In this document: piece by piece, positions 41,964-42,103 of the stretch
Numbering within the stretch: position 1 is the first letter of the stretch
Layout: each line of letters starts with the position of its first letter
Assembly (NCBI GenBank): GCA_964348785.1
Contig: CAYGDO010000007.1
Coordinates: 1 to 42,160 of the forward strand
DNA length: 42,160 bases
DNA from: an uncultured Candidatus Saccharibacteria bacterium
GTDB taxonomy: Bacteria; Patescibacteriota; Minisyncoccia; Phycocordibacterales; 2-02-FULL-43-11
Direction: 5' to 3'
Notes under the pieces: model-generated
Databases searched by the model: none
Seen by the model: the letters and a program-made list of their open reading frames with translations, nothing else
What the model was told of the DNA's origin: nothing
Translations under genes and position numbers: made by a program

Positions 41964-42103
41964 TGGTGGACCCTAAAGGAATCTCTCCCTCGAAATTTCC
42001 TCATTGTCACTCACAAATTTCTAGGCACCAATTTGTCGACAAGTTCTACTGAACTCGTAGACCGACAAATTGTTCGAATCCTAACACAAAACTATGTTTT
42101 GTT
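41964..42103. repeat. tRNA-Ala(UGC) trailer element bounded by a 17-bp near-direct repeat
   Basis: TGGTGGACCCTAAAGGA (41964-41980) vs TGGTGGACCCTACAGGA (42104-42120); three hairpins. Confidence 0.88.

Follow-up and report, generated by a model that had tools for sequence, protein, structure and literature searches.

A tRNA-Ala(UGC) trailer in a Saccharibacteria genome is a reduced copy of a family of folded non-coding modules matched to tRNA 3' ends in Patescibacteria

The window analysed here, i.e. the whole stretch of 42,160 nucleotides, ends inside a gene for tRNA-Ala(UGC) that encodes its own CCA, has its 3' end at 42104 and is truncated where the contig stops. A complete version of the gene stands on another contig of the same assembly, at C1:1-75 (ARAGORN: tRNA-Ala(tgc) at C1 c[1,75]), and the end of the window's contig, C7, is 100% identical to positions 21-77 of the C1 gene. 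A second tRNA-Ala(UGC) gene as the cause of the contig break can be ruled out: there is a single gene, and the end of C7 and the start of C1 overlap by 57 nt. The next gene downstream codes for an alpha/beta-hydrolase plus PKD protein (CDS 40867-41943 on the minus strand; the ORF list gives an alternative start GTG at 41949). No promoter-like and no terminator-like site was found in 41700-42160. The sequence that separates the tRNA from the leader of the hydrolase gene is called trailer B in the following text; a second unit of the same family, trailer A, lies in the same window (Table 1).

Table 1. Features of trailer B, its neighbours and trailer A (positions in the window)
Feature	Position	Strand	Evidence or remark
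tRNA-Ala(UGC), 3' 57 nt	42104..42160	minus	cut by contig end; Rfam tRNA 37.3 bits, truncated on the 5' side
Helix H, variant without CUGC loop	42083..42103	minus	stem 42096-42102 with 42086-42092, loop AUA; MFE fold
a2, antisense of the T-loop and the beginning of the T-stem 3' strand of the tRNA, AGGATTCGAAC	42072..42082	minus	inverted repeat
Helix P2, two-tier hairpin	42029..42072	minus	outer arms 42063-42072 and 42029-42038; MFE fold, inverted repeat, covariation
Invariant junction GGUGCC	42024..42029	minus	conserved columns in alignments A2 and A3; its complement is the GGCACC of the sequence-only reading
Helix P3	41988..42025	minus	closing pairs CCU/AGG; holds 41991-42022; fold, inverted repeat, covariation
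Conserved linker GGGAGAGA	41982..41989	minus	family consensus GUCGARGGAGA; alignments A2 and A3
X', sense copy of tRNA-Ala(UGC): T-loop 3' part, T-stem 3' strand, acceptor 3' strand, ACCA	41964..41983	minus	18/20
20-nt leader with GAAGG (Shine-Dalgarno-like) and ATG 41943-41941	41941..41963	minus	hydrolase gene start
Trailer A, second family unit in the window, behind tRNA-Ala(GGC)	37790..37965	minus	model R1, 127 bits

Trailer B belongs to a widespread family, apparently undescribed, of folded non-coding modules of about 130-190 nt that in Patescibacteria stand immediately 3' of tRNA and tmRNA genes and share their strand. The conserved scaffold of the family consists of helix H, the two-tier helix P2, the GGUGCC junction and helix P3 with a conserved loop; there is no open reading frame within the unit. 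Helix H of trailer B aligns with H of the sister copies, and its variant lacking the CUGC loop is also present behind tRNA-Tyr and tRNA-Ser(UGA). The P3 loop reads GAGUGACAAUGAG, the family consensus being GAGCGACGGCGAG. At the distal end of trailer B, the sense copy X' (GATTCCTTTAGGGTCCACCA) agrees with the tRNA-Ala(UGC) 3' end (GAGTCCTGTAGGGTCCACCA, 42104-42123) in 18 of 20 positions, CCA included, with 0 matches in 100 shuffles. The best match of X' among the tRNAs is its own tRNA-Ala(UGC), with a score of 10 as compared to 8 for the runner-up. This distal copy of the Ala 3' end had been noticed in an earlier sequence-only reading of the DNA and is real; the bases quoted in that reading match the sequence.

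The antisense side of trailer B is poorly preserved. Specifically, a2 forms an 11-nt inverted repeat with 42117-42127 (91%, 10/11 complementary to the tRNA), but this covers mostly the universal T-loop. The tRNA-specific part of a2 matches in 4 of 7 positions, which is the chance level and is reached or exceeded by 15 of 42 other tRNAs; in most sister units this part matches in 6-7 of 7. The antisense copy of the acceptor strand, a1, is absent, and since H begins 1 nt past the CCA of tRNA-Ala(UGC) there is no room for a1 or a leader. Note that a1 is also absent or partial in some sister units and is therefore not universal. Trailer A is complete: it has a1 (GTGGACCTA), H with the CUGC loop, a2 (CGGGGAGTCGAAC), P2, P3 and X'. 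Trailer B is thus a reduced, worn copy, lacking the leader, the acceptor antisense and the CUGC loop and having a decayed T-stem antisense, while P2, P3 and the sense copy are intact. Its clamp is predicted to be weak (4+2 bp or, in another pairing, 6 bp of which two are G:U), and trailer B may no longer be working.

The sequence-only reading had offered another account of this trailer: the plus strand would hold a split tRNA-Leu 3' end, and the element would have been born at a Leu locus and come to Ala genes later. Parts of the underlying description are correct. The hairpin at 41991-42022 is present (arms 41988-41998 and 42015-42025, 91% complementary), its excision does bring ATCTCTCCCT and AGGCACCA together, and GAGGG can pair with CCUUU. 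The spliced 15-mer of trailer B agreed with tRNA-Leu(UAA) and tRNA-Leu(CAA) in 11 of 15 positions, and that of trailer A likewise scored 11/15 to tRNA-Leu(UAA). Only about 1% of shuffles equal the Leu score, before correcting for the reader's free choice of splice points; tRNAs for Thr, Ser and Arg reach 10/15. The supposed Leu acceptor strand CCTAGGC is made up of the three closing pairs of P3 (CCU/AGG on the tRNA-sense strand) and the complement of GGUGCC, and both recur in units that follow Tyr, Arg, Gly, Gln, Asp and Ser tRNAs. The bases preceding the proposed T-loop end on the plus strand are AAAGGA and not a T-loop; the preceding AAAGGAAT does not conform to TTCRANY. The pseudo T-arm suggested for the minus strand does not recur either: in the same register sister copies, e.g. 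the one behind tRNA-Gly(UCC), have no 5-bp stem with a 7-nt loop, as judged by eye from an alignment. In the sister copies the GGGAGA stretch is near constant and the T-stem strand varies tRNA by tRNA.

Searches with tRNA models point in the same direction. Neither strand of 41964-42103 matched a tRNA or any other Rfam family, even at E<=10, and ARAGORN found no tRNA in this interval; with RF00005 the plus strand gave no match at E<=10 in either trailer. The plus strand also has the weaker fold (-29.6 kcal/mol, z -2.1, as compared to -43.2 kcal/mol, z -3.4, for the minus, tRNA-sense strand). A search of the Leu genes for related trailers had been proposed; the Leu(UAG), Leu(UAA) and Leu(GAG) units scored only 35, 32 and 56 bits, respectively, against the type-1 model introduced below, and the sequences read there represent other scaffold types. 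An origin at a tRNA-Leu locus is therefore unsupported, the acceptor strand in question being conserved scaffold that occurs behind non-Leu tRNAs as well. The Leu relic reading of trailer B is largely refuted, and we consider it very improbable. The same reading had alternatively seen in trailer B a tRNA mimic in front of the hydrolase gene. There is indeed a CCA-ended end copy 20 nt ahead of the ATG; it is copied from the host tRNA-Ala and not from a foreign tRNA, and the other units all copy their host tRNA likewise.

For the type-1 scaffold we built a provisional covariance model, R1, trained on 11 copies from the genome itself, trailer B among them. Trailer B matches R1 over the full model length with 91.4 bits (E 1.4e-18), a score that is partly circular because trailer B belongs to the training set. 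R1 is matched independently by the nearest relatives of trailer B, which lie behind tRNA-Tyr and tRNA-Ser(UGA), and by 28 same-genus copies. There are 32 places in the 0.79-Mb genome that match R1, and 30 of them are linked to tRNAs: they lie 0-53 nt 3' of a same-strand tRNA, belong to an array that follows a tRNA, or follow a tRNA fragment. H hairpins with the CUGC loop number 19 in the genome, and each is part of a tRNA trailer. About half of the genome's tRNA genes are followed by one or more units, and the orientation of the unit relative to the tRNA is strictly fixed. In many sister units a terminator-like hairpin stands between the tRNA and the unit.

The fold of the scaffold is well supported by covariation. 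Copies from the genome itself show compensatory changes in 29 of 36 pairs. Among the 28 distinct same-genus copies, 93.6% of the cells are paired and double changes occur in 34 of the 36 pairs; for these copies the covariation score is 0.72 as compared to 0.22 for shuffled and 0.07-0.13 for slid alignments. On the tRNA-sense strand G:U pairs outnumber A:C pairs (24:8 and 29:13). This bias is modest, and the fold may also form in single-stranded DNA.

The units follow a common layout. An antisense copy of the T-loop and T-stem, often with the acceptor strand, is followed by H, P2 and P3 and then by a sense copy running from the T-loop to the 3' end of the tRNA; the antisense address is split by H. 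The sense copy was uniquely best for its own tRNA in 16 of 21 units, mostly with 12-13 of 13 nt. When a2 was scored with the T-loop as an anchor, its tRNA-specific part matched 6-7 of 7 nt for the own tRNA against a mean of 3.1 for other tRNAs; the units of Gln(CUG), Gln(UUG) on contig C1 and Glu(UUC) were mis-anchored in this scoring and are 7/7 by eye. The address rule also holds behind tmRNA in two congeners. The two addresses can pair and close the unit as a helix that repeats the sequence of the tRNA acceptor and T-stem. A sense plus antisense design around a shared folded core was not found in Rfam or in the literature searched.

Scaffolds up to 96-98% identical are found behind different tRNAs and differ between congeners at the same tRNA; therefore, scaffolds have moved or been exchanged between unlinked tRNA loci and between genomes. 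For example, the unit of Ile(GAU) on contig C9 and that of Lys(CUU) on C1 have 96% identical scaffolds and different addresses. The scaffold of trailer B is closest to that of the tRNA-Tyr unit (77-78%), the other Ala unit being only 47% identical. In 9 of 9 cases a scaffold had its best partner elsewhere than behind the same tRNA of a congener. Behind tRNA-Ala(UGC) there is no unit in the congeners G002 and G004, and G010 and G007 have other subtypes. In congeners, units follow the His, Asn, Ile(UAU), Arg(UCG) and Ser(CGA) tRNAs as well as tmRNA, and the five tRNAs named are present without a unit in the genome studied here (G000). The claim of the sequence-only reading that the element moved among tRNA genes therefore stands for the family, while its start at a Leu locus does not. 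Distribution is patchy: within the order, R1 hit 32 of the 41 genomes, copy numbers per genome being 0-28, and a scan of the phylum found units in 26 of 401 genomes, with other classes patchily represented. Tandem arrays of units occur.

Attempts to catch an insertion directly gave no example. The downstream hydrolase is absent from 8 relatives, and no filled/empty pair with conserved flanks on both sides was found; an exact-match scan of metagenome contigs with the leader and gene start returned nothing; and no scaffold-less palindrome, the expected fold-back intermediate, was seen behind tRNAs in a non-exhaustive look. Two candidate engines were rejected. Reverse transcriptase (PF00078) is absent from G000 (28 units at the filters of that search) and from G001, G009 and G038 (13-21 units). 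Y1 transposase (PF01797) is present in the unit-free genomes G006, G011, G014, G022 and G024 and absent from the unit-rich G001, G009 and G032. No spreading enzyme was identified in this survey, which covered reverse transcriptase and Y1 transposase.

The explanation that we favour, at a probability of roughly 0.6, is that the units are a family of mobile structured modules matched to tRNA 3' ends and co-transcribed and processed with the tRNA, trailer B being a reduced member. Transcription, processing, any function and the mechanism of spreading are here inferred from sequence. Having neither a spacer nor its own promoter or terminator, trailer B would be transcribed with the tRNA as part of the precursor. 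Simple co-transcription is disfavoured for many sister units because of the terminator-like hairpin that precedes them. The duplicated tRNA end could present a second cutting site to the enzymes that process tRNA ends, and a second cut would set the module free as a separate RNA, while the hydrolase message would keep a 5' context as if it stood directly behind the tRNA. New addresses were probably copied at the DNA level from the adjacent tRNA gene. We propose template switching or gene conversion as possible routes, seeded at the near-palindromic universal T-loop sequence TTCGAA, which flanks every scaffold in antisense on the left and in sense on the right. A bolder extension, which we regard as unlikely, sees in the units a programmable element: the scaffold would be constant, and the paired addresses would serve as a variable guide that directs the copying of the element to a matching tRNA 3' end, in the gene or in the precursor, by base pairing and with host enzymes only; the RtT of E. 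coli (see below) would then be an isolated relic of the same principle. If this is true, the units represent a new class of base-pairing-guided, tRNA-end-specific genetic element.

Other explanations have to be weighed against mobile, co-processed modules. The units could be relics or miniature derivatives of integrase-mobilised elements (CIME-like), with the tRNA-end copies as attL and attR and a tyrosine recombinase acting in trans at the T-loop. Direct repeats of the tRNA 3' part do flank trailer B, and in the family the direct repeat has its start within the T-loop or close to it and can extend 14-18 nt beyond the tRNA end, as is typical of att identity blocks; tmRNA among the targets and tandem arrays are likewise in agreement with such an origin. 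However, the repeats are specific for each tRNA while scaffolds are up to 96-98% identical, and therefore one attP cannot serve all sites. In addition, an antisense copy is foreign to att sites, integrase is missing from the unit, and what lies inside the unit is a multi-helix fold that is conserved and covaries, and not decayed coding sequence. We think this origin improbable. Much the same weight can be given to the idea that the fold acts in single-stranded DNA, where the paired arms would rebuild a double-stranded tRNA gene end and a host recombinase or nuclease would insert the unit beside the tRNA. Folded DNA of this kind is used elsewhere: a hairpin of the CTX phage rebuilds the dif site, and integron attC sites fold. 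A folded hairpin that integrates in the manner of the CTX phage would be expected to produce the order seen here (tRNA end, short remainder, antisense arm, large loop, sense arm, flank), and the strictly fixed orientation relative to the tRNA fits as well. Insertion of a DNA fold leaves unexplained how the arms come to match each new tRNA, whereas the conserved letters of junction and loop and the G:U bias suit RNA better; moreover, Y1 transposase genes do not follow copy number. It seems doubtful to us for these reasons.

The units could also serve the host, as a device for tRNA maturation in which the antisense arm has two possible partners: pairing with the tRNA 3' half would prevent folding and processing, pairing with the sense copy would set the tRNA free, and a signal that binds the scaffold would set the switch. 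By construction the antisense arm is complementary to both partners. In many units pairing of the acceptor strand with a1 lengthens the spacer hairpin and puts the tRNA 3' half into one long stem, and the conserved loops and junctions are reminiscent of RNAs that bind ligands or proteins. Such a switch is nevertheless rather unlikely, as occupancy behind the same tRNA varies among congeners and many genomes of the order have no copy, which is unlike an essential regulator, and in trailer B most of the antisense arm is missing. The presence of the units in a streamlined 0.79-Mb genome, in a phylum of extreme genome economy, means either an unusually successful selfish element or something that cells use. 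In the annotation of Patescibacteria assemblies, many apparent att sites, "extra tRNA 3' ends" and contigs broken at tRNA genes are explained by units of this family.

Several known systems share features with the units. Integrative elements targeting tRNA and tmRNA genes, and CIME, use the same targets, keep the tRNA gene whole by duplicating its end from the T-loop onward, and form arrays. The units differ from them: they have no integrase, measure only 130-190 nt, combine tRNA-specific repeats with a shared interior, copy the target in antisense too, and have a fold that covaries and resembles that of an RNA. MITEs, REP/BIME and the IS200/IS605-derived PATEs are, like the units, small, gene-less, structured, multi-copy and patchy elements with terminal inverted repeats. 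In the units, however, the terminal repeats copy the local target and not a transposase site, there is no fixed target-site duplication, linkage to the tRNA 3' end is strict and in one orientation, and Y1 transposase genes do not track copy number. tmRNA and viral tRNA-like 3' ends resemble the units in that 5' and 3' segments form a helix of acceptor/T-stem sequence up to the discriminator base (plus CCA in trailer B) with helices inserted. Unlike these, the units have a fully Watson-Crick acceptor helix, keep no T-loop and give no match to the Rfam tRNA clan at threshold. Charging is unlikely because the acceptor helix is fully Watson-Crick and the alanine G3:U70 is replaced by A:U in trailer A.

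The closest parallel is RtT/rttR in the tyrT-tyrV operon of E. coli (Rfam RF00391; K-12 sequence), whose units also lie directly 3' of a same-strand tRNA gene in a tandem array. The 178-nt RtT units end in a sense copy of the tRNA from the T-loop to the CCA (TAATCCTTCCCCCACCACCA, 19/20), as trailer B ends in a tRNA 3'-end copy, and an antisense copy (GGGGAAGGAT, the reverse complement of ATCCTTCCCC) lies about 100 nt upstream of the sense copy. GAGAAGC after the antisense copy is reminiscent of GAGAAC, a variant T-loop complement that some Patescibacteria copies have, and the hairpin loop GAGCGCCAGCGAG resembles the P3 loop consensus of the family. At the sequence level the two are distinct: RF00391 (threshold 45 bits) had no match at E<=10 in the whole genome or in either trailer, R1 gave only local, non-significant matches in the E. 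coli RtT region (E 0.2-1.3), and the best pairwise alignment of RtT with the units reached a non-significant z of 3.5 among 29 comparisons. RtT is confined to one tRNA species in enterobacteria and has no H-type hairpin splitting the antisense copy, whereas the Patescibacteria units follow about half of all tRNAs as well as tmRNA and are spread across the phylum. The mode of action of RtT is still called unknown (bioRxiv 10.1101/2024.07.17.603846). RtT and the units have a common sense-plus-antisense design with no detectable sequence similarity, and this shared layout offers E. coli as a tractable organism for finding out what such units do.

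About half of the 44 tRNA genes in this genome (792 kb, 36% G+C, 11 contigs, the window being contig C7) carry similar units downstream. Trailer B, behind tRNA-Ala(UGC), is a worn or reduced member of this family of RtT-like, structured elements matched to tRNA ends, which is abundant and mobile in this lineage. The occupied tRNAs are those for Gln, Leu, Tyr, Lys, Val, Arg, Glu, Pro, Asp, Ser, Gly, Ala and Ile, and behind some of them the units form tandem arrays. Behind each such tRNA, its own T-loop and T-stem recur in inverted form at about +30 to +60, and its own 3' end is repeated directly at about +100 to +260.

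Features at the locus of trailer B, and the elements of the unit scaffold in their order
Feature	Position	Strand	Remark
tRNA-Ala(UGC), partial gene	42104-42160	minus	window ends inside the gene; remainder opens contig C1
Trailer B	41964-42103	minus	140 nt immediately 3' of tRNA-Ala(UGC)
Alpha/beta-hydrolase plus PKD protein		minus	ATG 20 nt past trailer B
Scaffold 1, hairpin H			mostly CUGC loop
Scaffold 2, antisense segment			ends in TCGAAC
Scaffold 3, helix P2			two-tier
Scaffold 4, junction GGUGCC			invariant
Scaffold 5, helix P3			loop GAGCGACGGCGAG
Scaffold 6, GUCGARGGAGA			after P3
Scaffold 7, sense copy of tRNA end			3'-most

The scaffold was read from an alignment of eleven units of this genome, trailer B among them, for which RNAalifold predicted 36 pairs with compensatory changes in 29. 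R1, the type-1 covariance model built from the same alignment, matches 32 places in the genome; trailer B, which is inside the training set, scores 91 bits (E 1e-18). Thirty of these matches lie 0-53 nt behind a tRNA on the same strand, belong to an array that follows one, or come after a tRNA fragment, and all CUGC-loop hairpins of the genome (19/19) fall in tRNA trailers. Among 28 distinct copies taken from four genomes of the same genus the paired fraction of cells is 93.6%, double changes occur in 34 of the 36 pairs, and the covariation score is 0.72 as compared to 0.22 after shuffling and 0.07-0.13 with partners slid, in an alignment fitted to R1 that favours the structure somewhat. The orientation of the units relative to the tRNA is invariant, and the ratio of G:U to A:C in the sense-strand helices is 24:8 in the copies of this genome and 29:13 in those of congeners. 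What the units share is a multi-helix fold, conserved on the tRNA-sense strand, between antisense and sense segments that derive from the target and can pair.

These two kinds of segment (the addresses) are specific to the host tRNA. The sense copy fits its own tRNA uniquely best in 16 of 21 units, mostly with 12-13 of 13 nt counted beyond the universal T-loop. In most units the antisense segment matches at 6-7 of 7 tRNA-specific positions, the mean for other tRNAs being 3.1. Upstream of H, many units additionally hold the acceptor strand and discriminator in antisense, for example GTGGACCTA in Trailer A, behind tRNA-Ala(GGC). Often the spacer is a palindrome resembling a terminator, with a stem that the acceptor strand and its antisense extend by pairing, and the direct repeat frequently extends 14-18 nt beyond the tRNA end. 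The rule is also valid behind tmRNA in two congeners, at L050 1136-1640 (genome G004) and L049 1400-1840 (G001), where the addresses match the tmRNA 3' end. The scaffold subtypes of these tmRNA units differ, and the G001 unit is an exact 193-nt tandem duplication which includes the terminator-like spacer.

In trailer B the hairpin H begins 1 nt past CCA, so that leader and acceptor antisense are absent. Its H loop is AUA, a variant common to the Tyr and Ser(UGA) units, and its antisense T-loop/T-stem segment matches at only 4 of 7 tRNA-specific positions. P2, P3 and the sense copy are all intact. The tRNA-sense strand folds at -43.2 kcal/mol (z -3.4) as compared to -29.6 kcal/mol (z -2.1) for the plus strand. 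Since no promoter-like or terminator-like site was found between tRNA-Ala(UGC) and the hydrolase ATG, trailer B would most simply be transcribed together with both genes as a single RNA. An exact 9-mer, CAATGAGGA (minus strand), is common to the P3 loop of trailer B (41998-42006) and the 3' side of the anticodon arm of tRNA-Ala(UGC) (42136-42144); about 0.03-0.04 chance matches are expected, and it is probably a coincidence because part of it belongs to the family loop consensus.

The assembly break sits within tRNA-Ala(UGC), with a 57-nt overlap between the end of C7 (42104-42160) and the start of C1 (C1:1-75). The gene is single-copy in the genome, so a second copy does not account for the break; one possible cause is that trailer B is present in only part of the population. 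The third tRNA-Ala of the window, tRNA-Ala(CGC) (39179-39276), has no unit, and a metallo-beta-lactamase-fold gene begins 25 nt past its 3' end, an example of an unoccupied tRNA-to-gene junction in this genome.

A sequence-only reading of trailer B had seen a split tRNA-Leu end on the plus strand. Its observations hold in part. The letters it quoted are correct, the hairpin at 41991-42022 lies within one with arms at 41988-41998 and 42015-42025, and its excision fuses ATCTCTCCCT with AGGCACCA. The distal copy of a tRNA end is real: GATTCCTTTAGGGTCCACCA (41964-41983) agrees with GAGTCCTGTAGGGTCCACCA (42104-42123) at 18 of 20 positions, matched by none of 100 window shuffles. The Leu interpretation is not supported. 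Neither ARAGORN nor Rfam (E<=10) finds a tRNA or another family on either strand of trailer B, and the same is true of Trailer A. The spliced 15-mer agrees at 11/15 with tRNA-Leu(UAA) and Leu(CAA) and at 10/15 with Thr, Ser and Arg tRNAs; about 1% of shuffles equal its Leu match, a figure uncorrected for freely chosen splice points. The supposed hairpin insert is the inner portion of P3. The leftover CCT and AGG are opposite strands of the three closing pairs of P3, and their join is therefore palindromic by necessity. The GCACC that follows is the complement of the invariant GGUGCC junction, and ATCTCTCCC is the complement of conserved GGGAGAGAT. The motifs behind the apparent Leu end recur in units of Tyr, Arg, Gly, Gln, Asp and Ser tRNAs. 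The trailers of Leu(UAG), Leu(UAA) and Leu(GAG) are, as read, of other scaffold types, with R1 scores of 35, 32 and 56 bits, respectively. As to the proposed minus-strand pseudo T-arm (GAGGG/CCUUU), it can form in trailer B, but its geometry is missing in sister units in the same register, e.g. Gly(UCC). In the alignment read by eye, copies not counted, the GGGAGA stretch is near-constant and the T-stem strand varies with the tRNA; unlike that stretch, the antisense T-loop/T-stem copy tracks the tRNA.

Turnover of units among tRNA loci is evident from several comparisons. The scaffold of trailer B is nearest to that of the tRNA-Tyr unit (77-78%) and resembles that of the other Ala unit much less (47%). 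All nine units of this genome with a same-tRNA counterpart in a congener have their closest scaffold elsewhere (0.74-0.82 vs 0.09-0.73). Scaffold identity reaches 96% between the unit of Ile(GAU) on C9 and that of Lys(CUU) on C1, and 98% between the neighbouring units of Lys and Leu(UAA), each with its own addresses; in such pairs the identity ends, left and right, at letters derived from the T-loop. In congeners G002 and G004 no unit follows tRNA-Ala(UGC), and in G010 and G007 the units at this tRNA are of other subtypes. Congeners carry units behind tmRNA and behind His, Asn, Ile(UAU), Arg(UCG) and Ser(CGA) tRNAs; these five tRNAs exist in the present genome without a unit. No pair of a filled and an empty site with both flanks conserved was found. 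R1 matches occur in 32 of 41 genomes of the order (0-28 copies each) and in at least 26 of 401 sampled across the phylum, an undercount given that only eight candidates per genome were scored, with up to 124 bits in other classes.

The unit would be made within the tRNA precursor. Since its closing helix appears to repeat the tRNA acceptor and T-stem with the same discriminator at the end (plus CCA in trailer B), tRNA-end trimming enzymes could free it and give the downstream message a tRNA-type 5' boundary. Spread may use two routes. Template switching or gene conversion could swap scaffolds from one existing unit to another, the universal T-loop letters (TCGAAC in antisense to the left, GTCGA or GTTCGA in sense to the right) serving as microhomology; the sharp boundaries of scaffold identity fit this. 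New address pairs could arise when the end of the tRNA gene is copied by fold-back: a spacer hairpin would prime copying back through acceptor and T-stem, and palindromic TTCGAA would then permit a switch forward again. This route predicts the observed segment order and the direct repeat reaching into the flank. Intermediates of either route were not seen. A reverse transcriptase is not needed, because it is absent from this and other unit-rich genomes, and the presence of a Y1 transposase gene does not track copy number; comparison of these two genes identified no partner enzyme.

Several units are unusual. At C9:13045-13260 (minus) a tRNA-like fragment of ~65 nt, with T-arm and acceptor 3' strand (...GAGAGTTCGAGTCTCTCCGCGCCCA) and without the 5' acceptor strand, lies between tRNA-Leu(CAG) and a unit whose addresses match the fragment, not tRNA-Leu(CAG). 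A degraded 3' fragment of tRNA-Gln precedes the unit at C11:1900-2110 (plus), whose addresses GGGGTACA, GTAAGGACTCGAA and CTCCTTGTAC fit not this fragment but the intact tRNA-Gln(UUG) 1.9 kb upstream (C11:3-74); the unit looks like a segmental copy. An orphan type-1 3' half (P3, GTCGAGGGAGAGATTCC...) at C8:25247-25359 (minus), with no tRNA nearby, is probably a fossil, since its tRNA-end-like terminus TTCCTATCACAGGAC matches no tRNA of the genome. In G002 the units L048 1397-1567 and L052 638-806 have the same ~45-nt nested insertion (CGACTTATTTTGATTTATCAAAATAGAAGT...) in the P2/P3 interval, which may be a second, smaller hairpin element landed inside the first.

The layout of the units is the same as that of the E. 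coli RtT repeats. At the K-12 locus the repeats behind tyrV are 178 nt long; each ends in TAATCCTTCCCCCACCACCA, 19/20 identical to the tRNA-Tyr end, and holds GGGGAAGGAT, the exact antisense of ATCCTTCCCC. The GAGAAGC that follows GGGGAAGGAT recalls the GAGAAC replacing TCGAAC in several Patescibacteria copies, and the hairpin loop GAGCGCCAGCGAG resembles their P3 loop. No similarity can be demonstrated at the level of sequence or of model score: RF00391 has no match in this genome at E<=10, R1 gives only local matches in the RtT region (E 0.2-1.3), and pairwise alignment yields nothing significant. According to one preprint (bioRxiv 10.1101/2024.07.17.603846), how rttR acts is still unknown. 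Integrase-borne islands and CIMEs have the target and the duplicated tRNA end in common with the units but lack the tRNA-specific repeats round a shared core, the antisense copy and the fold, whereas MITE and REP-type repeats are alike in size and patchiness and lack target-derived ends. Full-text literature searches turned up no account of units like these in Patescibacteria. The units belong to a known kind, repeats behind tRNA genes that carry the tRNA end; the address principle itself is possibly something new.
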